A stretch of DNA of 64,000 nt from Candidatus Latescibacterota bacterium (GTDB lineage Bacteria > Latescibacterota > UBA2968 > UBA8231), in the NCBI GenBank assembly GCA_965205655.1, contig CBDBIJ010000058.1, positions 73,095 through 137,094 of the forward strand, read 5' to 3'. The translations under genes were made by a program, and so were the position numbers. Shown here one piece after another: positions 12,274 to 49,901 of this stretch. Positions within the stretch are counted from its first letter, which is position 1. Every line of letters starts with the position of its first letter. Below the pieces are notes generated by a model. It saw nothing but the letters and a program-made list of their open reading frames with translations, was not told the origin of the DNA and searched no databases.

Positions 12274-13362
12274 GTGTCGCTCGACGGAATCACCGGTCAG
12301 GACCGGGCCAAGTCGCAGATAGCAGGGTGGTTGAGGGCCGGGCGGCTTCCCCACACCATCCTGATCAGCGGTCGGGAGGGTGTGGGAAAACGCTCCCTGG
12401 CGCTCGAGCTCGCCAAGGGTATCAACTGCGAGCGGGGCGAGTGGCCGGCCTGCGACGACTGCAGATCATGTATCAAAGCCGCGTTGCTCGAACATCCTGA
12501 CCTCCACGTCCTGCTGCCGCTGCCGCCGGTTCGCGGACGTGCGGAAGTGGCACAGCTGCTGACATCGATGCGTGCAGCCAGCCTCGAGTATCTCAGCTAC
12601 GAGACCGACGCTTCCCGCAGCAACCACAATATCCCCGTCGACGTGATTCGCGCTATCCAGCGGGAAATGGGCCACACGCCCACTGGCGGGCCCCGACGAA
12701 TCTGTCTCATTTTCGAGGCCGACCGGATGCATCAGGCAGGCGCCAACTCCCTGCTGAAGATACTCGAGGAACCGCCCGGACGCGCCGTCTTCCTACTGGT
12801 GTCATCGGCTCCGGACCGCCTTCCGCCAACAGTCGTCTCCAGGTGTCAGCGTCTCCACCTTCAGCCCCTGACTCGGCAGCAATTGAAGGCGAGTCTTTTG
12901 GCCTCAGGTGCCGAGGAGGTCCGCGCCGAGGTTGGGGCTCGCTTCGGAGCGGGGAGTCTGCAGCGCGCCGGCGAGGCGCTGACTGACGGGTTCGATGAGT
13001 GGCGGGAACTCGTAGAGCGCTTCGTAGAGGCCGCCATTCAGGGCGAAGACGGGGGGTACTGGAAGTTGTTGGACGAGCTGGATGCGACGAAAGACCGAAC
13101 GCAGCTCGAGCGGTTTCTCCACATGTGCGGCCTGTACCTGCGAGATCTGTTTCTGATGGCGAACGGCGCAGCGCACGAGGTGGTCAACGCAGACCGAGTC
13201 GATCGAATGGCTGCGTGGCTGGCCGCAATGGATCGGAACAGGCTCGAGGCAGCCGCGATCGAAGCGGACCGCGCCTACGAGTATCTGATGCAGAATGTCG
13301 GCCCGTCACTCGTGCTTGCCGATCTGTGGCGGGCGCTCAGGCATTCGGAGGAGGCTGCGTAG
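12274..13362 (+). CDS. holB: DNA polymerase III delta' subunit
   Basis: GREGVGK, C..C..C zinc motif, HPD, ANSLLKILEEPP, TVVSRCQ. Confidence 0.9.
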   Translation: MSLDGITGQDRAKSQIAGWLRAGRLPHTILISGREGVGKRSLALELAKGINCERGEWPACDDCRSCIKAALLEHPDLHVLLPLPPVRGRAEVAQLLTSMRAASLEYLSYETDASRSNHNIPVDVIRAIQREMGHTPTGGPRRICLIFEADRMHQAGANSLLKILEEPPGRAVFLLVSSAPDRLPPTVVSRCQRLHLQPLTRQQLKASLLASGAEEVRAEVGARFGAGSLQRAGEALTDGFDEWRELVERFVEAAIQGEDGGYWKLLDELDATKDRTQLERFLHMCGLYLRDLFLMANGAAHEVVNADRVDRMAAWLAAMDRNRLEAAAIEADRAYEYLMQNVGPSLVLADLWRALRHSEEAA

Positions 13363-17283: not shown

Positions 17284-19531
17284 CATCCGTCGTCGCACGG
17301 TTCGAAGGGTCGTCGCCGTCTGGCTACCCTTCGCAATCGTCCTCGCCGGCTGCTTTTCCAACAATCCCTACCGCGCCTCGGAACGCGGTCAGAACACCTA
17401 CTACGGTGTGTTCGGGGAACCGCCAAAGCATCTCGATCCGGCGATTTCCTACTCGTCGGGCCAGTACACCTTCATAAGCCAGATTTACGAGCCGCCGCTG
17501 CAGTACCATTATCTGAGGCGGCCGTACGAACTGATTCCGCTCACGGCACAGCGCGTACCTACGCCCACCTACTACGGTGCCGACGGACGACTCCTCGGCA
17601 CCGAGCCGCCCGCCGACGAGGTGTCGCGCGCCGTGTACCGGGTGGAGATCAGTCCGCACGTACTGTATCAGCCACACCCCTGCTTCGCCCGTAGTGACGA
17701 CGGCGCGTATCTCTACCACGATCTGAAATCGAATACCGCTACCGAGGCATTGCGGCAGCGTCTCGACACGTACGAAGAGATCGAGGAATTCGAGGTGCAG
17801 GCTACGCGTGAACTGACGGCCGCCGATTACGCCTATCAGATCAAACGGCTGGCCGATCCGCGGTTGCACAGCCCGATCTTCTCCACAATGGCCAAGTACA
17901 TCGTCGGGCTGGATAGACTGGGCCAGGATCTGAACGACGAATTGGACCGCATCCGGCGGGATCGCCGCCAGCGCGCAGGCGCGCTCTACAGCCAGGAGAG
18001 AGACGAGCTCCAGAATCCGATCTGGTTGGACCTGGACCGCTTCGAGCTACAGGGAGTGCGGGTGCTCGGTGAGTTGACCTTGGAAATAGAGCTCAGTCAG
18101 AAGTATCCCCAGTTCGTCTATTGGCTGGCGATGCCGTTCTTCGCCCCAATTCCGCGCGAGGCAGATCGCTTTTTTGCCCAGGAACCCTTGATGCGGCGGA
18201 ATCTCAGGCTCGACAATCGTCCCATCGGGACCGGCCCCTACCGAATGGCTTCATTCGTGGCCCACAAAGAGATCGTTTTGGTGCGCAACGAGAACTACCG
18301 GGCAGCCTTCTATCCCACGGAGGGCGAGCCTGGAGACGAAGCAAAAGGGTTCCTCGACGATGCTGGAGCGCGATTGCCGTTCATCGACAGGGCGGTGTAC
18401 AAGCTCGATAAGGAGTCCATACCACGGTGGAGCAAGTTTCTCCAGGGCTACTACGAGACGTCCCTCATCGCCACCGAGGTCTTCGACCAGGTGGTACAGT
18501 TCGATGCCGAGGGCGGCCTCGATCTTTCGCCACAACTCGAGGAGCGCGGGGTCCATCTCGTCAAGACAGTGCAGCCCCGGATTCGGTACTTCGCCTTCAA
18601 CATGAACGACGACGTCGTGGGGGGGTACGGCGAGGAGAAACGGAGGCTGAGGCAGGCGCTTTCGATCGCCGTCGATATCGAGGAGTACATTCAGATCTTC
18701 ACCAACGGCCGCGGGCAGCCGGCTCACGACCCGATCCCACCAGGAATTTTCGGTCACGGGTCAGGGAGTGGACAGATGGACCCGTTCGTCTACCGAAAGG
18801 ACGAGGCAACAGGCGAACCGCTGCGGCGAACCATCGATGAAGCCAGGGCGCTGCTGGCCGAAGCCGGATACGAGGGCGGCAAGGACGCCTCCGGTGAGCC
18901 TCTCGTGCTCTACTTCGATACCTACTGGACGGGTCCCGGCGCCAAGGCGCGCACGGACTGGCTCCGGAAGCAATTCGCCAGGCTCGAAGTCGACCTCGAG
19001 ATTCGCCAGACAGACTACAACCGGTTCAACGGCAAGATATCGAAGGGGAACTATCAGATGTTTATGTGGGGGTGGAACGCGGACTACCCCGACCCCGAAA
19101 ATTTCCTTTTTCTACTGTACGGTCCGAACGGCACGACAAAGCACGGCGGCGCCAACCACAGCAACTACGACAACCCGGAGTTCAACCGGCTCTTCAAGCT
19201 GATGGAATCCACGGCGAACGGACCGGAACGGCGCGCTCTGCTCGAGCAGATGCTGGCCATCGCCCGGCGCGACTCCCCGTGGATCTGGGGGTATTTCCCG
19301 GTTTCGTTCACTCTCTACCACGAGTGGTACGGAAACGCCAAGCCGCTGGGAATAAGCAAGAACGACCTCAAATACAAGAAGGTCGATCCAACGCTGAGGG
19401 AACAGCGCCGACGTGAGTGGAATCAACCGGTGTCGTGGCCGCTGTGGGTGGCAGCGGTCGCCGTGGCAGCAGCGGCCATTCCCGCGCTGGTCACCATTCG
19501 CCGCCGGGAGCGCGAGGTCACGTCGCCGTGA
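17276..19531 (+). CDS. Opp/Dpp-type ABC substrate-binding lipoprotein
   Basis: TTG start overlapping the ilvE stop, lipobox [29 protein letters not shown], hydrophobic C-terminal helix. Confidence 0.88.
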
Positions 19532-37239: not shown

Positions 37240-40200
37240 GTAACCGTTCACGTCCCTGCGTGACGGGTGTGTTGTGGCGGGATCTGGTGGTGTTGTGGAT
37301 CTATGCGCGCGTGGACGCGGACTGCGGCAAGAGCGAAGGAGCGTGCCGGTGGTGCAGAGTAGCCTGACAGGCCTCCGTGAGGTAGTCGAGTACGTTGCGT
37401 TGCTGTTGGCGCAGCGTGTCGCGCACGGTGAGTATGCGCTCGACGAAGCGGCTGCCCGCAGGACTGTGGGTGCCGAAGCTGCCCTTGCGCCACAACACCC
37501 CGTGGCGCAGCGCTCGCTCGGCGGCGTTGTTCGTGGGCTCAACACCTTCCTTACGGACGAAGGTCCACAAGGCCGGTTCGATGGCGGCCAGGTTGGCGCA
37601 GGTCCTGGCGGTCTTCTGGTCGGCCAACAGCTCGCCTTGCCACAGCCTAAGACGGAACCGCAGTCGCAGGTCGCTGATGTAGGTCTGCAAGCTGGATCGC
37701 TCCAGCGTGCCGTCGCGAACGCGATGCCACCAGGAGAACATCTGGTGCGTGAACTCCAGCAGCTGCTGGCCGACCCAGGCCGCGTCGCCGCCTCGGTCGA
37801 CGAACTTCTCGAAAGTGCGCTCCAGGTGCGACCAGCAGGCCTGGCGCTGCAACACGGGCAAGTAGCCGTAGGCCTTGTGGCGATCGGAGCCCACGATGGC
37901 GGTGGTGTCGTCTCCCAAGAGCTCACGGGCCACCTCGCTGTCGCGGCGCGAACGGATGGCAAATACGGTGACCAGATCGGTGGCCACGGTCCACAGCCAG
38001 GCGTTTTCGCGCGCTTCGCGCCAGCCGGTCTCATCGATATGCACCGCCGCTTGTTGCCGCACGTAGTCGCGTGCGTCTTCGACCGGAGCCGCCAGCGCCT
38101 CGGACACATGCTGTTCCAACTGGCTGACCGAGCCGACGGCCAGATCGAGGCTGAACGCGTCGGCGAGCAGGGCGACGATGTTGCGCTTGCTCATCCGGTA
38201 GGCGCCCGACAACAGACCGATCCAGGCCTGCACACTCGGACCAAAGCGGCTGCGTGGCACCGACTCGGGCCAGTCGGCTTCGGTGAGCACGTCGCAGCCC
38301 GGACAGCGCAGGGTGTGCACCTGGTACTCGGTGACCTGAGGTCGTACCGGCGGGATCTCGAACACCTGGCGGCGCTGCGGATGGGGATCGTCGCCGCTCA
38401 AGGCGTGGCCGCACTGTCGGCACGCGGTGGGCTTGACCGGCACCAACGTGTCCACCTGCTCCACCGACAGCAGCGTTCGCCCATGCCCTTGGTGCCCGGG
38501 TTGTGCCCCTGGCGAGCGGCCCGACGGGCGCTTGCGGCGACTCGACGTCGAGGCGCCCGCCTCTTCGCTCTGGCCGGATGGCGGCGGCTTGTCGGACGGC
38601 GGCGATCCATGACGACGGCGCCCGCCGCGCTGCAGCTCGGCCACCTGGCGTTCCAGCTGCTTCACTCGCTGCTGAACCTCCAACAGCGACATGACGAGGA
38701 GCTGCACCGCCTTCGGCGTCTGCTGCCAATCGGCGTCGGAAACCGGAATGCCAGGAAGTTTCTCCACTGGGCTCCTCGGGTAGGTCAGCGTACAACCACT
38801 GTCCGAAGGTAAGCGTTCAGATCCCTGCGTGGTACGGGTAACAGAGAGCGGAAACCGGTGGGATTACCGCGAGACCGCGTTGTCTTGGGGCAGGAGCGAA
38901 GGTGCTGGCTGGTGGCAGAGGACGGCTTGACAAGCCGAGGTGAGATAGCCGAGAACGTCGCGCTCCTGTCGGCGCAGTGTGTCACGCACGGTGAGCATGC
39001 GCTCGACGAAGCGACTCCCTTCGGGGCTATGGGTGCCGAAGCTGGTGAGGCGCCACAGGACCCCATGCCTGAGACCGCGCTCAGCGGCATTGTTCGTGGG
39101 CTCGACGTCGCCGCCCTTGCGCGCGAAGGTCCACAGGGCCGACTCAATGGCGAGCAGATTGTCGCAGGTTGCGGCCGTCTTGGCGTCGGCGAACTGCTGC
39201 CCATACCAGAGTTCGAAACGAACCCGGAAGCGCAGATGGCGACTGACGTAAGCCTGGAAGCTCGACAGTTGCAGGGTGCCATCGCGGATTCGATGCCACC
39301 AGGTGAACAGCTTCTCCGCATACTGCAGCAGTGTCTCACCGACACGGGCCGCCTCGCCGCCGCGCGCCACGAAGTCCTCAAACGTGCGCCGCAGATGAGC
39401 CCAACAAACTTGGCGGCGAGACACCGGCAGATGGCCGTAGGCCGAGAAGCGATCGGAGCCAACGATCGCCGTGCTGTTGTCGCCCAGCAGCTCATCGACG
39501 ACCTCCCGACCACGGCACCGGCGAATGGCGAATACCGAGACCCCGGCTGTGATCACCACCCACAGCCAAGCCCGGACGCGGCGCTCCCGCCAGCCGGTCT
39601 CGTCGAGGTTGACCGTCGGCTGCTGGCGAACGTAAGCCCGCGCGGCGTCGACAGGCTCGGCGATCCCCGCCGACACCTCTTGTTCCAGCTGGCTGACCGT
39701 GCCCGGGGACAGGTGCACGCCGAAGGCGTCGGACAAGAGCGCGACGATGTTGCGCTTGCTCAAGCGGTAGGCGCCCGACAGCAAGCCGACCCAGGCCTGC
39801 ACACTGGGCCCGAAGGTGCGGCGCGACACCCCCTCCGGCCAGGGCGCTTCGGTCAGGATGTCGCAGTGCCGGCATCGCAGGGTGTGGAACTGATACTCGA
39901 TGACCTGGGCTCGCACCGGAGGTATCACGACCTCCTGGTGACGCAGCGGATGAGGATCGTTGCCAGACAACGCCTGACCGCATCGGTGGCAGGTGCTCGG
40001 CTTGATCGGCACCAACTCGTCCACCTGCTCCACCGGTACCAACGAGCGACCGTGGCCTTCGTGACCCGGCTGCCCGCCCGGCGAGCGACCCGAAGATCGC
40101 CGTTTGCCGGTGCGACGCGAGGCTTGAGAGGCCGACTCCGACGACGACGCCTGGGCGCTGCGACTGCCCCGTCCTTTTCGGCGCGCCAACTCCGTTTCCA

Positions 40201-40554
40201 GCGACGCGATCCTCGCGGCCTGTTGCTCCACCACCTGCTCGAGGTGCGCGCCGCGCTCCATGGCTTGCAGCAAGTTGACCACCAGCGCCTGCACCGCCGG
40301 CGGCGTGTGTCGCCAGTCGCTGTCCGAGATCGATGGAGGGGTTTCCTTCACGGCGTCGCCAGTACCCGTAGAAACGTGCGGACCAAACAACCGATCCCAA
40401 GATACCAGCGAACGCCCAAACAGAACAGTTCTTTCTCAAACCGCTGCTCCCAGCATGCGGGACTGAACGCTTACGTCCGAAGATACCAGCAATCGCTGAA
40501 TGAGAACAGCTTTTTCTCACGTTACGGAGCACTCCTACGGGACTGAACGGTTAC
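37240..40554 (-). mobile_element. IS66-family element copy 2 (near-identical to 33063-34703) carrying a nested IS66
   Basis: Same IRs at 37240 and 40554; transposase 38767-37301 intact with few substitutions (PIKP>PVKP, ADEK>ADQK); flanks AGTTTTCT / CTTTCATT show no duplication. Confidence 0.93.
38809..40474 (-). mobile_element. Second IS66-family element nested in the leader of copy 2, 8-bp duplication GTCCGAAG
   Basis: IRs GTAAGCGTTCAG / CTGAACGCTTAC; duplication at 38801-38808 and 40475-40482; transposase about 40351-38864 with DETGW, CWAHLRR, TNNAAERGLR. Confidence 0.95.
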
Positions 40555-41898
40555 CTTTCATTTCACCGTCGATGAATGGCACCCCCTCGATGACCTGGGT
40601 GATGAGCTTGTAGCCCCTGAGTCGGCGCCAGTGTTTCTCCGCATCGGTGGCCAGTTTGAATACCATGGTGAGAGCGGCTATACGTGAGCCGCACCCCTTC
40701 GTCTGGTGGGTTCGATGACGGACCGTGCTGAAGGTTGATTCGATGGGGTTGGTCGTGCGCAAATGCGCCCAGTGGTCGGCAGGGAAGTCGTAGAAAGTGA
40801 AGAGCACATCCTCGTCTTTTCGCAGGCATTCACAAGCCTTGGGGTACTTGGCTTCGTAGAGGTCCAGAAAGCGCTGGTAGACTGCGAGGGCTTCCTTCTT
40901 GGTGGGCGATAGGTACATGTCGTGAAATCATCTGCTTGGCGTCCGGTTGCTGACCCTTTGGCAGCTTGTCCAACACATTGGCCGTCTTGTGCACCCAGCA
41001 CTGCTGCTCCCGAGTGCGGGGATACGCTTCCCGCAGCGCCTTCCAGAAACCCAAGGCGCGATCTCCGACAGCGATGCAAGGACCCTCCGTCAGACCCCGG
41101 GCTTTGAGATCCTCAAGCAGGTGGGGCCACGACAGGGAGCTCTCTCGTTCGCCGTCCACCACGGCCAGCAGCTCCTTGCGTCCATCATGGGTGGCACCGA
41201 CCACGACCAGGACGCAAGGCCGGTCGGGTTGAAGACGCACGTTGAAGTAGATGCCGTCCACCCACACGTAGGCGTAGCGCTTGCCGCTCAGATCCCGCTG
41301 CCGCCAGGTGGCATACTCCTTTTCCCAGACCTGCTTGAGCCGCACGATGTTGGCCGGTGAAAGACCGGACACCTGGTCCCCCGGAATGGCCTTGAGCGCC
41401 TCTGGAAAGCTCGAGGTTGAAATGCCTTTGAGATACAGCGCTGGCACCAAGACGTCGATGCTGGGAGCTCGCCGGGCATACCGGGGTGGAATAGCGCTGG
41501 TGAACCCCGCTCCCTCTCGCCGGTCGTCTACCCGTGGCTGCCGCACCGGTACTTTGCCCACTCCGGTGACCAGTTGGCGTGGCGGATGGAAGCCGTTACG
41601 CACCACCAGACGACGGCCGCGCGCGTCGCGCTCCCCTTGGTGCCGTTCGGTGTATTCAGCCACTTCCGTCTGCAGGGCCACCTCCAGCATCTGTCGAGCC
41701 CCTTCCCGGAGGAGTTTCTCCAGGTCAGACCGCAACTCGTTCCGGGCTATGCCCTCCACCTCAACTGCCGTATATTCTCGCATGAGCGTATCCTTTCTCC
41801 CTCCTTGCCGAGGGAGCTGTAGGTTGTTGTGGACTTATAAGGATACGCTCTCTTTTTTATCCTTCCACTACCCCATCCACGACTTTCGAATATACCTC
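40555..41898 (-). mobile_element. IS256-family element, frameshifted, right end removed by IS66
   Basis: VRNGF, LYLKGIST, VWVDG, QQCWVHK, HLRTTNPIESTF; frameshift near 40920; left end GAGGTATATTCGAAAGTCG at 41898. Confidence 0.88.
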
Positions 41899-43190: not shown

Positions 43191-43381
43191 GCTATCGAGT
43201 CACGGAATCCACCGGCGCGAAAACCGCCTTCGCCTTACTGGAGAGCCTTAACCGGACTCCGACTACTGGTGGGATAGCCTAGAATAGAAATCTCCAAGGG
43301 GCGGCTGACCCACGACCCAAGAAATCCCTTGAATGCCCCAGGGCATGACTGCGGCAAGGACAAGCCATGGAAAAATCGACA

Positions 43382-44299
43382 TGAGATCCCCCCGATTTCG
43401 TGGACAGTCTTCATCTTTGGTGAAGAAAGGAGTCCACAATGCCGTACACGAGCACCGTATCCAGAGGAATTCCGCCAGCAGATCGTGGAGTTGGTTCGAT
43501 CAGGGCGCAGTCCGGGGGAGTTGGCCAAGGAATTTGAACCTTCGGATCAGACGATCCGCAACTGGGTTGCGCAGGCCGATCGAGACGGGGGGCGCCGTTC
43601 CGACGGCGTCACGAGTGAGGAGTTGGAGGAGCTCAAGCGGCTGCGTCGGGAGAATAAGCGTCTCCGGATAGAACGGGAGATTCTGGCAAAAGCCACGGCT
43701 CTGGTTCGCGCGAGGGGCCGATTCGGAGTCCGGGCGGTCTTCGAATTCGTGAAAGCGTACCGGGCCGAATTTCCGATCGCCACCATGTGCCGCGTACTGG
43801 GAGCCTCTCCCAGCGGGTACTACGCGTGGCGGAAGCGTCTGCCGTCGAAGAGAGAGCAGGAGGACGCGGTGCTCAAAGAGCGAATCGGGGAATTCCACAA
43901 AGCGTCCCGAGAGACGTACGGCTCTCCGAGGGTCCACGTCGACTTGGCCGAAGAGGGCACGCGGGTGAGCCGCAAGCGGGTGGCCCGACTGATGCAGGAG
44001 GCGGGCCTGCGAGGCGTGTGCCGCCGTCGCCGAGTACGCACGACGCAGCGTTCCGAGGACGGGCGCGTTGCTGAAGATCTCGTCGATCGAGACTTCAACG
44101 CCGAAGGTCCGGACGAGCTCTGGGTTGCCGACGTCACCTATGTTCCGACAGCGGCCGGGTTCCTGTTTCTGGCCGTCGAGTCGTGGGCTGGGCCATGGCC
44201 ACGCATTTGCGCACGGAGCTGGTGCTCGATGCGTTCGAGATGGCGCTTACGCAACGCAAAGCGGACGGCGTCATCCACCACTCGGATCGAGGCTGCCAG
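43382..44299 (+). mobile_element. Degenerate IS3-family element
   Basis: End TGAGATCCCCCCGATTTCGTGGACA; YPEEFRQQIVEL, YGSPRV, WVADVTY, IHHSDRGCQ; several indels; truncated. Confidence 0.88.
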
Positions 44300-44617
44300 G
44301 GTAGATTCAAGTGGTTGTCGCAATATCTCAACAGCGAGGAGTTGCGATGGGATCGAGGAAGCGAAAGCGAGCGGCTGACCGTGCATGTCGGCCGCCGATG
44401 CAGTCGCCCGGTCGACCGCCTGGGTGGCGGCGCGAGCACAAACAGCGATTCTGGGACGCGGTCGGTCGCGGGTTGTCGAGTGAGGAAGCCGCCACGGTGG
44501 CTGGATTGTCGCCTGCGGTTGGAGGCCGTTGGTTCCGTGAAGGAGGTGGGATGTCAACGGTCAGTACAGCTCCACTGTCGGGTCGCTATCTGTCGTTTGG
44601 CGAGCGGGAGGAAATCG
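44300..44617 (+). mobile_element. 5' fragment of an IS30-family element
   Basis: End GGTAGATTCAAGTGGTTGTCGCAA; SPGRPP, RWFREGGGM, GRYLSFGEREEIA. Confidence 0.7.
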
Positions 44618-45524
44618 CGGTAGCCGCCGTGCAGATCCTGCCAACGGTGGAGCTCGTGCAGCTGTCGGGCCGCAGCGAAGGGCTCGGGTTCGAGGAGTTC
44701 GCGAAGATGTCCCTGCCGCCCGAGAGATTGATCGCGTTCCTGGTGCCCAACGCCTTCGGCAACCCCTCAACGGGCACATATTGGGGGCGGGAAGCCGGAT
44801 TCTTCATTCAACTCTGCCCTTACTTCGGCGTCCTTCCCCTCGTGCTCGCATACCCCTGCCCATCCATCCGGACGTCGGGCGCAACCCCTGCCCTTACTTC
44901 GGCGTCCTTCCCCTCGTGCTCGCCCTCGTGGCGGTGCGCGAGCGTCGCGACGCCGTGACCACATTCTTCTGCTCGTTGTGTTGCGTCGCCCTCGCTCTCG
45001 CTCTCGGCAAGTACACGGGACTTACAGGGCTCCTCTATCAGGTGATTCCCGGGTGGAGTCTGTTCCGCATCCCCACCCGGTTCCTGGCCTGGATGGGACT
45101 GGGTGGCGCCGTGCTGGCCGGCCTCGGCATGGACTGCGTTGTTCGCGAGCGGAGAGAGAGCCCCCACTTCACGCGCGTGATACTCCTCGCACTGCTCGTC
45201 CCAGTCGCGATTCTGGTTCTTCTGAATCGGCAGCTTCTGTTTTCTGCATCCGACGCCTCTTCGATGTGGACGGCAGAGCACGCAGATCAACTGCTGCAGT
45301 ATCGCGGCGAGCTCCTCGGCGATCTCATTCGATGTGGGCTGATGCTGAGTGCCGGGCTCGTTCTTCTCTGGCCACAGAGGTGTGCGGGGTGGCGACGGCC
45401 GGCGGTCACGTGGCTCGTTCCCGTTTTCATCTACGCCGACCTCTACAGTTTCGGGGCTGCCTTCAACTCACTGATTCCGACAGAGGTCTACACGAACAGT
45501 CCCAAAACCGCCCAGTTCATATGA
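44618..45524 (+). pseudogene. Internal fragment of a YfhO-like multi-pass membrane protein, frameshifted by a 74-bp insertion
   Basis: AVQILPTVEL, YFGVLPLVLA, ALG, PGWSLFRIPTRF, LAGLG. Confidence 0.7.
44814..44923. repeat. 36-bp direct repeat flanking a 38-bp unique insert
   Basis: CTGCCCTTACTTCGGCGTCCTTCCCCTCGTGCTCGC at 44814-44849 and 44888-44923. Confidence 0.92.
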
Positions 45525-45668: not shown

Positions 45669-45693
45669 TGTCCACTAAACGGGGTCAAGTCCA
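45669..45693. mobile_element. Isolated IS3-family terminal repeat
   Basis: TGTCCACTAAACGGGGTCAAGTCCA, exact reverse complement of 47647-47671. Confidence 0.8.
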
Positions 45694-45753
45694 GTTCAAT
45701 GCCGGCTCGTGGTTCGAGGGCGACCTCACTCACCGCACATATGAGGTACAGAC

Positions 45754-46335
45754 ATGCCTAAAGTCAAGCTCAAAAATGCTGATATCGCGACGGAAGTATC
45801 AGGCAGACTGCCCAAGTTTCCGAAATACACTACCCAAATTATGAACCTTGCCAACCAGAATGCTCAGGGTACGCGTCCAAGTGTCGTGGGCCAAATGACA
45901 GATCTCTTCCGTGAGTTCGGCGGAAAGACGTTTGAAGAATGGGACGCCTGGTACAGGCAACAAAAGCCAAGTGCACTGGATGATGCGGCTGACCGGGTTT
46001 ACCCGATGGCGGAGAACCTCCGTACCGCCATTCAGCTGATCGACAAAGGAATGGTGCGGGCTTGGATAGAGGATCTCGTGCTTGTGAAGACCTTCGTCGG
46101 TCTGTGCTTTCAGGGGGCTATACTATCCAAGATTGCGCAATTAAAAGGTGTTACTTACCGCGTATCCACACCAGCGGAGGAATCGCGGGGAATCGACGGG
46201 TTTATAGGAGATACGGCCGTCTCCATCAAGCCATCGACGTACACTGCCAAGGACATGTTAAGTGAGAAGCTACAGGGTGAATTGGTGCTATATGAAAAAA
46301 AGAAAGACGGTATTGCGTTCTCTTTCGACTTCTGA
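45754..46335 (+). CDS. MjaI-family type II restriction endonuclease
   Basis: FPKYTTQIMNLANQNAQGTRP.VVGQM, DLVLVKTF.GL, EESRGIDG...SIKP (PD-(D/E)xK-type). Confidence 0.82.
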   Translation: MPKVKLKNADIATEVSGRLPKFPKYTTQIMNLANQNAQGTRPSVVGQMTDLFREFGGKTFEEWDAWYRQQKPSALDDAADRVYPMAENLRTAIQLIDKGMVRAWIEDLVLVKTFVGLCFQGAILSKIAQLKGVTYRVSTPAEESRGIDGFIGDTAVSIKPSTYTAKDMLSEKLQGELVLYEKKKDGIAFSFDF

Positions 46336-46338
46336 CCC

Positions 46339-47514
46339 CTATAGATCTAATTGCGTCTGAGAGGCCTCCGCCGGAATCGCGACCTTTCGCTTGCCTCCGG
46401 ATCCATTCGATCGGATGGGTTCAGTCGGTTGGACTACGAATTCGCCGACTTGTACGAATTCGGACTGAGGTTTGTCATCGTACTTTGTACGGTACGTCAT
46501 GTTATCCGACCCGACTCTGACTTCATTCACGTCATTGAGGAGTAGCTCTTGTTCCTGCGAGGTCATAACTGGGAACCCGTAATGGCAATTCGTATGCCTG
46601 AGTGGACCTCGCTCTGCGATCCGCGTTGCTGCCCACTCCACGTGTCTGGCCAACCGAGTACGACTATACTCGTTTGCAATACTGGGGACGGCTTGAAGGA
46701 GGGCCTGCACGATCGGCGCAAGAGTCACGTCAAACTCAACGCCTATCGAGTTTCTCCCTGACGCAAGGGCCGCTGCCATCGTTGTTCCAGTACCAGCAAA
46801 AGGATCTAGAACCACGTCTTCTTTGATAGAGAACATGCAGATAAGCCTATACGCCAATTCAAAGGGAAATGCGGCGCTCCGCTCACGTGCAGTCGCGTCG
46901 ACTAGGCCCTGAGTGGTGCCTTTTATGTCAAACCACACATCAGAGAACCAGACGTTGCGTTCTTCCCAGAAAAAGGCACTCGCGCGTCTTCGGGATTTCT
47001 CTTCTGCACCGGTGAACATTCGCCGCTTGCCCTTTCTAAGAACCAGAACGTACTCGTGCTCGTACGTCACGTACGCACCCACAGGCAGCATCCCCGAGCC
47101 CATGAACTTGTTTGGCGCGTTTGTTTGTTTGCGCCACAGAATGTCCGGTAGGGCCGCGAAACCCCTCCCGAGGAAGCTACTTAGTATTCGCGAGTGATTG
47201 GAGTACAACTGGAAGTCACCATGGATTGTCCGTGTTGCGTCACCAATATTGATACAGGCGATCCCTCCCGGCTTCATGACCCGGTCGCATTCGGCCCACG
47301 CCGCGTCCAAGAGACCATGCATTTTCTCAAAGGCTGCGGCGCCCTCACCGTCCGTGAGATCAACGCCAATACGGTCATCTTGTTCCGTGAACATGCCATC
47401 CCACATCTCTATCATGGGGTACGGTGGAGATGTCACGACCAGATCAACCGACGCGTCAGGGATCTCAGCCATAGACTGAGCAGGACAACATATTAGCTTG
47501 CTGATTGTTTCCAT
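46339..47514 (-). CDS. Beta-class amino (probably N4-cytosine) DNA methyltransferase, cognate of the endonuclease
   Basis: VTSPPYPMIEMWD precedes VLDPFAGTGTT; KFMGSGMLP..AYVT.EHEY; convergent with the REase. Confidence 0.9.
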   Translation of the reverse strand: METISKLICCPAQSMAEIPDASVDLVVTSPPYPMIEMWDGMFTEQDDRIGVDLTDGEGAAAFEKMHGLLDAAWAECDRVMKPGGIACINIGDATRTIHGDFQLYSNHSRILSSFLGRGFAALPDILWRKQTNAPNKFMGSGMLPVGAYVTYEHEYVLVLRKGKRRMFTGAEEKSRRRASAFFWEERNVWFSDVWFDIKGTTQGLVDATARERSAAFPFELAYRLICMFSIKEDVVLDPFAGTGTTMAAALASGRNSIGVEFDVTLAPIVQALLQAVPSIANEYSRTRLARHVEWAATRIAERGPLRHTNCHYGFPVMTSQEQELLLNDVNEVRVGSDNMTYRTKYDDKPQSEFVQVGEFVVQPTEPIRSNGSGGKRKVAIPAEASQTQLDL

Positions 47515-47646
47515 TATTTTTAGCTCTGGACTTCGCTTTTTTATCCCACTTCTACGTAGAGATTTAGGCGTTAGGCACTACTGAGTCAAGCACAATTGTT
47601 AGACTCATTTGCTCACAGGCTGTTGGACACCTGATCACGTCATTAC

Positions 47647-47845
47647 TGGACTTGACCCCGTTTAGTGGACACCTCATTTCTTGTGAAAAGGAGGATGTCC
47701 CATGCCCCGAACTCGTACACCGTATCCGCCTGACTTCCGCGAGCAGATGGTTGCGCTCGTAAGAGCGGGTCGGACGCCGGATGAACTCGCAAGGGAATTT
47801 GAGCCCTCTGTGCAGACCATTCGCAACTGGGTGTTCCAAGCGAGT
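47647..47845 (+). mobile_element. IS3-family left end and orfA fragment
   Basis: IR TGGACTTGACCCCGTTTAGTGGACA; MPRTRTPYPPDFREQMVALVRAGR...IRNWV. Confidence 0.85.
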
Positions 47846-47849
47846 GTGG

Positions 47850-48440
47850 ATGACGGCTCGATCCCGTCGTCGCCATCTCCGGGCTGGAGGAGAGCGTGTT
47901 TCCGACCTCCCGAGCCATAGAGGAAAGTCGGCTCGACGAGTCCGCCATCGAAGAAGAGCGGCGACTGCTCTACGTGGGCGTTACGCGAGCCCGTCGCCAT
48001 CTCATGCTCAGTCGCGCCCGCTGCCGTTATACCTTTGGCTCGATTCAGGAATCCGAGCCCTCCCGCTTTATCCGCGAATTCCCCACCAGAGCTACTGCAC
48101 AACTATGCCGAACCGAAAGCCGGCATGGAATCGGAGTTGAGCCGGCGCCTGGGGAGGCGTCGAGGCCGGGCTCCGGCAAGGTAGTCTCAGCCGCCGGGGC
48201 CCGCGCGGAGTGGCGAAGCGAGGCCCGAAGGGGCCGACCGAGCCGGCGTTCACTACGAGTGGGACGAACCGTCTGCGGCAATCGAGCACGTCGATTCCAT
48301 GTCCGACGCTCTCGATGCGGACGACATACTGGCGGTCGGCCGCTGGGTTCTCCACGATACCTTCGGTCGAGGTCAGATCACGGCTCGTGAAGGCAGTGGC
48401 GAGCGCACGAAACTGACGGTCCGCTTCGCGAACGGTGAAG
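47850..48440 (+). pseudogene. 3' fragment of a PcrA/UvrD helicase
   Basis: EEERRLLYVGVTRAR (motif VI), PSRF, C-terminal VLHDTFGRGQI...LTVRF; frameshifted. Confidence 0.85.
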
Positions 48441-48442
48441 AG

Positions 48443-48784
48443 CCACTTGGTGAGGAAGTCGCGCAACAGGAACTCGTCCCTGGTCATGTGCCAGAGGAGC
48501 AGAGGTCGCCATACCTCGCGGTCCACCCCGGCCTTTGCCAGAAGGACGAGGGGCCGGTCGCGGCCCCCTGGCTCGAAGCGGCGATTCAGCACTTTGCATA
48601 CGTCGCGCAGCCAGTTTCGAGAGGCGACGCCGATACTGTTGGACTCTCGCACCTTGTCGAGGTTGGCCTTCTTCGACTGCGACAAGTCCCATTCTTGGAA
48701 GACGGCGTAAGTCTCCTCGACCAACGCCCCCTTGATGATGGTGAAGGAGGAGACGACATCGGCACGGGTGGAGACAGTGGCCAT
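48443..48784 (-). pseudogene. brxA: Truncated BrxA/DUF1819-like gene
   Basis: SSFTIIKGAL..ETY, LLLWHM.RDEFLLRDFL; start overlaps the upstream stop (TGATG). Confidence 0.6.
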
Positions 48785-49339
48785 CAGGCATCCGTTCGTG
48801 CGTAGGGTACCGCGAGATCGCCCTTCCCGCCGCGAAAAAACCCGGCGGCCAAAAGAGCCAGGGTACCTTCGTCCTCTTCGTCGAACCCCTGGTAGTGGGA
48901 CGGCGCGTCCCTCCGCGGAGCGGCCCAACCTCTGCGCTTCGCTCACGGTGTCGCCGGTGATCAGCTCCAGACCCTTCAGCCAAACCAAGAGGTCCGAGCC
49001 CTCACAGGTCTGCAGCTCCCGGAAGAACGGCTCCCAATCGCTGGACTGGTCGAGCCAACCTTGGACCACTCGATCGACAGACTGTTCAATATCTGCCGAG
49101 AGCCGCCACAATGTAATGGCGCCCCGCGGATCGAAGACCTCGACTGAGCGCCGCGCTGCCACTGTGAGCGCCACCCGACCCTGGGCGAAGTAATGAGTCT
49201 TGGGGAAGCCGCGGCTGTATACCGCCGGGCCACGTGATCCAAGAACGCCCTGCGTGTTCCACCAGACAGCCCCGTTCATCTCGCCGAAACGGGCGACTGC
49301 GAGCCGGAGCCTGAGGAGGTGAGTAAGGTCTACTGGCAT
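48784..49339 (-). pseudogene. brxE: BrxE-family gene with one frameshift
   Basis: LLRLRLAVARFGEM..A.WWNT.GVLG..G, RGFPKTH.FAQ; C-terminus LAAGFF.G..G.LAVPYA in another frame after about 48885. Confidence 0.65.
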
Positions 49340-49901
49340 AGAGAAGCCCGTTTCACAGCGAGTCCTGCCTTCCTGAGCACCAATTCCAACAGGAGCCCTA
49401 TTCACTCACGCACAGGCCCTCCCCCTCGACACAGTAGGCGAATTCCCGTGGTGTGTCTGGACCGATCACAAGATAGCTGCGATCCAGGCTTTCGGCGATC
49501 AGCGGAAAAGCCCTCTTCACGAGGGAGCACATACCGTCTGCATCTGCCGCCGTTGACAAACCTGGAATCGACTGGAAGCCGATGACTGTGACCCGCACCT
49601 CGACAGCGAGCGCTTCATCTTCACCGCTGCCACCAGCGCGCTAGCCGCACTGGTCTTTCCATTTGCTTATTTCCTCCGTCCATCAGCCACTGTTTGCCGT
49701 TGCGCTACACCCATCCCGCACCCGGTATCAGCGTGCCACCATCGCACTGCGCCTTGGGCCGTTGCATCGGCAAGTTTGGCGGCGTGTGGTCGGGGCAGTC
49801 GCCCCGGAAGGGTATATAGCCTAAGCAGCGGCTTTGGGATCGCTAAACCATATTCTATTGATCTTTCATTATCTTTCTTCGATAATAGGAGTTCGGCGAA
49901 G

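Follow-up and report, generated by a model that had tools for sequence, protein, structure and literature searches.

A 36-bp duplication around a 38-bp insert in a yfhO gene fragment of a Latescibacterota bacterium: a possible scar of off-target type I-G spacer integration

Introduction

Among the systems closest to the locus described here are those in which the CRISPR adaptation machinery acts outside its own array. In the type I-E system of E. coli, off-target integration giving rise to neo-CRISPR units takes place on overexpression (Nivala, Shipman and Church 2018, as cited in PMC7054753, bioRxiv 10.1101/148544 and PMC6698737), and bioRxiv 10.1101/148544 mentions circumstantial evidence for off-target integration in two other species. 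For the Cas1-Cas2 of P. furiosus, paired off-target, full-site integration occurs in vitro at positions 30-31 bp apart, the repeat in this organism being 30 bp long (Grainy et al. 2019, PMC6698737). For the type I-G (I-U) Cas4/1-Cas2 of Geobacter sulfurreducens, a spacer mode of 36 bp and a TTN PAM are given by Almendros et al. (2019, PMC6547450). Within the literature covered, which was largely open-access, we found neither a survey of natural off-target scars nor a report of type I-G off-target integration in vivo.

In this study we analyzed a 64,000-nucleotide stretch of DNA from a Candidatus Latescibacterota bacterium (hereafter, the window), in which a repeat-insert-repeat unit of similar proportions interrupts a fragment of a protein gene.

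Results

The unit consists of three adjacent parts:

44814..44849, + strand: repeat copy 1, 36 bp, ordinary yfhO coding sequence; found once in the paralogue on contig C35 (32/35 identical)
44850..44887, no strand assigned: insert, 38 bp, 68% G+C; best other site in the genome 25/38; present in contigs of runs X1, X2 and X5
44888..44923, + strand: repeat copy 2, 36 bp, same letters as copy 1

We confirmed that this structure is real in the window, and the exact 36-bp duplication around a 38-bp insert that was quoted in the preliminary description was reproduced at the coordinates listed. The direct repeat is exact with a period of 74, and the flanking bases differ on both sides, so that no extension of the repeat is possible. 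The repeat had been called ordinary coding sequence, and this holds, given that it lies in the yfhO frame and is a single copy in the C35 paralogue. The scar repeat gave 0 matches to Rfam, which missed the true CRISPR repeat on contig C119 (see below) as well.

The gene that carries the unit is itself a remnant, and it resides in an island rich in insertion sequences:

about 44620..45524, + strand: internal fragment of a yfhO-family membrane protein gene, residues about 219-496 of an 840-aa paralogue
44311..44619, + strand: repeated-element remnant, presumably IS30-like, cutting the yfhO fragment at its 5′ end; many divergent high-depth contigs, 0 Pfam families
43329..44378, + strand: IS3-family transposase remnant, upstream of the yfhO fragment
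37301-41783: IS66 and IS256/Mutator copies of the IS-rich island that holds the yfhO fragment

The yfhO fragment is cut off at both ends, and its sole frameshift is the 74-bp insertion. Removal of the 74 bp does restore the reading frame, as had been claimed: the resulting frame is stop-free and aligns with the intact 840-aa YfhO paralogue encoded on C35 over 277 codons, of which 120 are identical, 88 synonymous and 69 changed. The paralogue has the repeat once and the frame is open when the 74 bp are taken out, which identifies the single copy as the ancestral state and the 36 bp as what was duplicated. Among 7995 candidates scored, none was a full-length protein identical to the fragment, the best being the C35 paralogue at 72%; two homologues bear the source names of Latescibacteria and Gemmatimonadetes MAGs.

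Other features of the same island were observed. Perfect 27-bp inverted repeats (window 45669-45695 and 47645-47671) bracket a restriction-modification pair composed of an MjaI-family restriction endonuclease (45754-46335, + strand) and an N4/N6 DNA methylase (46339-47514, − strand). Just past the right arm is an apparent orfA start of the IS3 type, a label assigned by eye, and the pair therefore seems to lie between the inner ends of two IS copies. An apparently broken frame with a weak match to BrxA (residues 226-322) is located at 48092-49405 on the − strand.

Target duplications of insertion sequences are far shorter than 36 bp, typically 2-14 bp. Terminal inverted repeats were not found in the 38-bp insert, and no other copy of the insert is present in the genome; with neither inverted ends nor another copy, the unit does not have the makeup of an insertion sequence flanked by its target-site duplication. 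One could also envision that an element integrated by site-specific recombination at a 36-bp core, leaving attL and attR, or that nested IS events took place, and that deletion then reduced the element to 38 bp. IS remnants and deletions abound in the region, and the left and right junctions of the insert are similar (see below), a likeness that might be that of recombination sites. However, besides the missing inverted ends and second copy, a search of 75 family genomes at ≤3 mismatches found the insert in none, and an exact 36-bp core in a membrane-protein gene with no integrase nearby would not be expected. We consider a remnant of this kind quite improbable.

Six sequencing runs were examined as assembled contigs, and one of them, X1, is possibly the source sample. 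The insert is present with no mismatches in contigs of three of the six, from two studies (X1 and X2 of study P1, X5 of study P3); run X3 showed the right side of the structure alone, and run X6 had no coverage. Depths in the X1 contigs are 5 for the left flank, 10 for the repeat, 5 for the insert and 4.2 for the right flank, and the doubled depth of the repeat is as expected for one unit per chromosome. None of the contigs bridges the whole structure with 31 bases on each side. Of the confirmation by reads proposed in the preliminary description, the assembled contigs supply a part, namely the insert in three runs and the doubled repeat depth, but no bridging contig. An assembly artefact might be suspected from a depth of only 3-5 and from the lack of a single contig across the structure, but the recovery of the same insert in three runs of two studies, together with the X1 repeat at twice the flank depth, leads us to regard it as highly improbable.

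Run X4 contains a 221-nt contig (window 44739-45012) that is without the 74 bp and has a mean depth of 2.06. Such a contig could represent an empty allele, and hence a polymorphism. The expected depth is 2.063 if two depth-2 pieces were joined via the 36-bp repeat alone, and approximately 2.5 if the contig were a contiguous allele of two 150-151-nt reads. Because the observed depth fits the former value and not the latter, the contig was rejected as evidence of an empty allele and is probably an assembly join. The empty state is therefore known from the homologues only, and the insertion may be fixed in the sampled population. As a caution of method, an empty allele can be mimicked when a contig passes over a repeat that exceeds the assembly word length, and it was the mean depth that exposed the case of X4.

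The assembly, at 84% completeness, gave no HMM match to Cas1, Cas2 or Cas4. Contig C119 (G000:C119:18411-19205, L117) carries an orphan two-spacer array with 37-bp repeats at 18480-18589, plus a decayed third repeat. About 200 bp farther along the leader side of the array is a 5′-truncated cas2 (18792-18965), which encodes the C-terminal half and is fused in frame behind an ApbE fragment (43% identity over 58 aa, E 4e-11). The C119 repeat is identical to that of an array in a Synechococcus MAG (L113), in which there are 45 copies, and the last 8 leader bases of the two arrays are the same. The L113 array adjoins a full type I-G operon (Cas7g, Csb2, Cas3g, Cas4, Cas1, Cas2). Since the repeat is identical in L113, the C119 remnant is of type I-G, and the array, its leader end and the half cas2 together indicate that the lineage once had a type I-G system, which was lost by deletion. 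The search for cas1/cas2 and arrays in the genome, through which the preliminary description had sought to substantiate a CRISPR origin, was thus productive with respect to the array, the leader end and half of cas2, but uncovered no cas1.

The scar compares with type I-G units as follows. The duplication is 36 bp, one base shorter than the C119 repeat (37 bp) and equal to the I-G-type repeats of the family (36 bp), and the 38-bp insert falls within the spacer sizes. The 42 regular spacers of L113 are 35-40 bp in length, nine of them being 38 bp, and the commonest repeat-plus-spacer unit (13/42) is 74 bp, which is the unit of the scar. In the same array, at about 12408-12558, the middle of one repeat is replaced by other sequence, which leaves a 113-bp gap between intact repeats. 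Among the family genomes, Cas1 is present in 9 of 24. Of 20 cas1 loci fetched, five have arrays whose repeats are 36 bp long and of I-G type, the type of these five being inferred from the repeat and from Cas1 frames of 578-620 aa. When I-G-type spacers were pooled (n=182), 32 were 38 bp, one of the most frequent lengths, and 135 were 36-39 bp. The scar was first picked for its CRISPR-like sizes, and the size match therefore counts less than it seems.

Comparison of the scar target with CRISPR repeats (20 comparisons) gave 9-15 matches over 36-37 positions; the best of these is reached by 2.9% of genome sites, and the profile score by 7.7%. By these alignments, the target does not appear to be significantly repeat-like. 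The term "proto-array" used previously is an overstatement, since the site has no leader and no significantly repeat-like sequence and lies in a dead gene fragment. Nor does the scar have the properties of a functional CRISPR mini-array, given that its repeat is yfhO coding sequence and that no cas genes were found by HMM.

The 38-mer was compared with the genome, phages and plasmids, as had been suggested, and neither a donor nor a PAM was found. Phage and plasmid records gave chance matches only (best E 0.4). An 18-base core of the insert had 0 matches in viral contigs and 59 in metagenome contigs, none of them above 28/38 over the insert; exact-match scans of this type overlook any donor with one change in the core. 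Contigs with loose ends on the insert were not found in X1, X2, X5 or X6. Three other sources were considered. An intact yfhO copy was rejected, as the insert does not match the C35 paralogue, and so was an origin as a degenerate form of nothing but the repeat (p 0.07-0.12); host-like coding DNA was not supported (p 0.33). The insert has no word of more than 8 bases in common with 300 bp of flank (p 0.52), and the minimal tiling is ordinary (p 0.31-0.68); on these measures, the insert does not appear to be a patchwork of nearby sequence.

The insert does, in contrast to what would be expected of Cas1-Cas2 integration, share sequence with its target at the junctions:

44852..44861, + strand: 10-bp word in the insert, which recurs over the insert/repeat-2 junction at 44884-44893

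The occurrence of one word both inside the insert and at its junction, pointed out in the preliminary description, was found at these positions, and with one gap allowed the match covers 14 bases and takes in the repeat-1/insert junction. A 10-bp repeated junction word was seen in 15 of 3000 genomic 38-mers, 10 of 3000 shuffles and 0 of 364 real spacer orientations, and the gapped self-similarity over the whole unit has p values of 0.011 and 0.009. When junction was set against junction, 18 of 22 columns were alike (p 1e-4), in a test designed after the pattern was seen. The word is not enriched in the genome (15 copies vs a median of 12 for shuffled words), and a donor with the doubled word was found neither there nor in any fetched locus. 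Because the chemistry of Cas1-Cas2 needs no homology, the repeated junction word would be a 1-in-100 coincidence under that model.

One hypothesis that takes account of the junctions is that template switching, or end joining by Ku and LigD, caught a short foreign fragment, and that the CRISPR-like sizes arose by chance. In the case of template switching, synthesis would exit the target where the 36-bp stretch ends, copy a donor and re-enter 36 bp upstream, using short homology both times; a donor with an imperfect 32-33-bp repeat would provide 3 bp of homology on entry and at least 6 bp on exit. The likeness of the two junctions in 18 of 22 columns and the rarity of the 10-bp word among random inserts agree with either route, as do other duplications in the genome with fillers of 2-20 bp. 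Contig C86 encodes Ku and, next to it, a LigD polymerase domain, and LigD insertions at duplication junctions are noted in bioRxiv 10.64898/2026.05.22.727201. Against these points, the duplication and the filler both lie far in the tail of the background and together hit the CRISPR unit length of the lineage, the middle of the insert was not copied from local sequence, and no donor with the doubled word was found and the word is not enriched. Since nearby DNA does not account for the rest of the insert, the repair model, too, requires a foreign donor, which must itself contain a repeat. The template-switching alternative raised in the preliminary description has gained weight from the rare junction word and the encoded Ku-LigD, but not from the middle of the insert, and we regard a repair origin, by template switching or by end joining, as a real possibility about which we remain doubtful.

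To place the scar within the background of duplications, isolated two-copy repeats of at least 18 bp with a period of 18-120 were collected from the 4.0-Mb genome. Of the 57 found, 35 are plain tandem repeats, three of these with a period of at least 30, and spacer geometry was seen only in the scar and in the C119 CRISPR remnant; the background duplications are shorter, or their fillers are short. Two non-CRISPR examples from the background are the exact duplications at G000:C65:21505 (31 bp, filler 7 bp) and C53:143 (27 bp, filler 3 bp). A scan for further 35-37 bp duplications with 34-40 bp inserts had been suggested, and the 4.0 Mb contained no second scar. Four Cas1-bearing relatives, from which 2.4 Mb were sampled with no cas-less control, likewise yielded no scar; three size-matching rows were discarded on visual inspection, two as protein repeats (one collagen-like, one dockerin-like) and the third as a true type I-E mini-array.

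Some other units were also seen. At L104:2247-2353 (G010:C1:319746), an imperfect 35-bp direct repeat (32/35) encloses 37 bp; the unit immediately follows a WYL-like regulator gene and precedes a Cas3-like gene, both labeled by eye. The enclosed filler contains a partly inverted copy, which makes a scar seem less likely than a regulatory site or a mini-array. Outside long arrays, canonical CRISPR repeats form single repeat-spacer-repeat units at L207:9569 (G018; 29+32) and L097:8917 (G002; 34+31).

Discussion

The reading that we favor, with modest confidence, is that the 74-bp insertion was made by off-target integration of a spacer by type I-G Cas1-Cas2 into a dispensable yfhO fragment, probably before the lineage deleted its cas1. 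A type I-G Cas4-Cas1-Cas2 complex would have inserted one spacer off target, the two 3′ ends of the processed prespacer attacking opposite strands 36 bp apart, and gap filling would then have doubled the 36-bp target. The scar would have been kept because the yfhO fragment was already dead. The ectopic acquisition put forward in the preliminary description is consistent with the sizes of a system that was once present and with the I-G-type arrays of the family, but no cas1 was found in the assembly, no second scar in the genome, and neither a donor nor a PAM.

As a rough estimate, expected counts derived from the background scan and the size tables give the Cas and repair models roughly equal odds: background duplications, though common, hardly ever combine 36 with 38 bp, and Cas scars have the right sizes but are seldom met in the family and should not echo the junction. 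What tips the balance to a Cas origin is the I-G remnant with its modal unit of 74 bp, together with a likely fixed scar that can predate the loss of cas1.

The two models might also be combined. Cas1-Cas2 may have joined one prespacer end off target, the other end having been caught by short homology and the event possibly finished by Ku-LigD. This hybrid route, which we think unlikely, would account for the CRISPR sizes as well as the repeated junction word, and it predicts that sequence sharing with the target is greater for natural off-target scars than for array spacers.

If off-target integration is the correct explanation, the scar preserves, as a natural fossil, the action of a type I-G integrase as a mutagen outside its array, in a lineage since deprived of the system, and it thus records both a cost of adaptation and a lost immune system. 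A single scar in a dead gene fragment, with no donor, adds a data point and not a mechanism. The self-similarity of the junctions is a useful twist, one that can be checked across scars of other genomes.

Off-target spacer integration is already known as a kind of event, and the scar works like the neo-CRISPR units and agrees with their proportions, a resemblance that stops short of membership. The likeness to the neo-CRISPR units of E. coli lies in a repeat-spacer-repeat that is not part of an array, in which the insert has the size of a spacer and the duplication roughly the length of one repeat. The scar differs in that it is natural and did not follow overexpression, in that its sizes are those of type I-G (36+38) and not of I-E, and in that the integrase gene is absent from the assembly and the insert has a word in common with the junction. 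As for the template-switch, MMEJ and Ku-LigD NHEJ junctions of bioRxiv 10.64898/2026.05.22.727201, they too combine a duplication with extra junction bases and short homologies, and Ku-LigD is encoded here, but the filler in the window is long (38 bp) and not locally templated. The type I-G system of G. sulfurreducens (PMC6547450) has spacers of a similar size class, with a mode of 36 bp there and a range of 35-40 bp in L113; the integration described for it is that at the array, and L113 has separate cas4 and cas1 frames. Finally, with P. furiosus Cas1-Cas2 (PMC6698737) the scar has in common a full-site spacing at non-CRISPR DNA that equals the repeat length to within one base, so that 36 against 37 bp is inside that spread and not an exact fit; the non-CRISPR sites used there resemble the repeat, whereas the resemblance of the target in the window is not significant.
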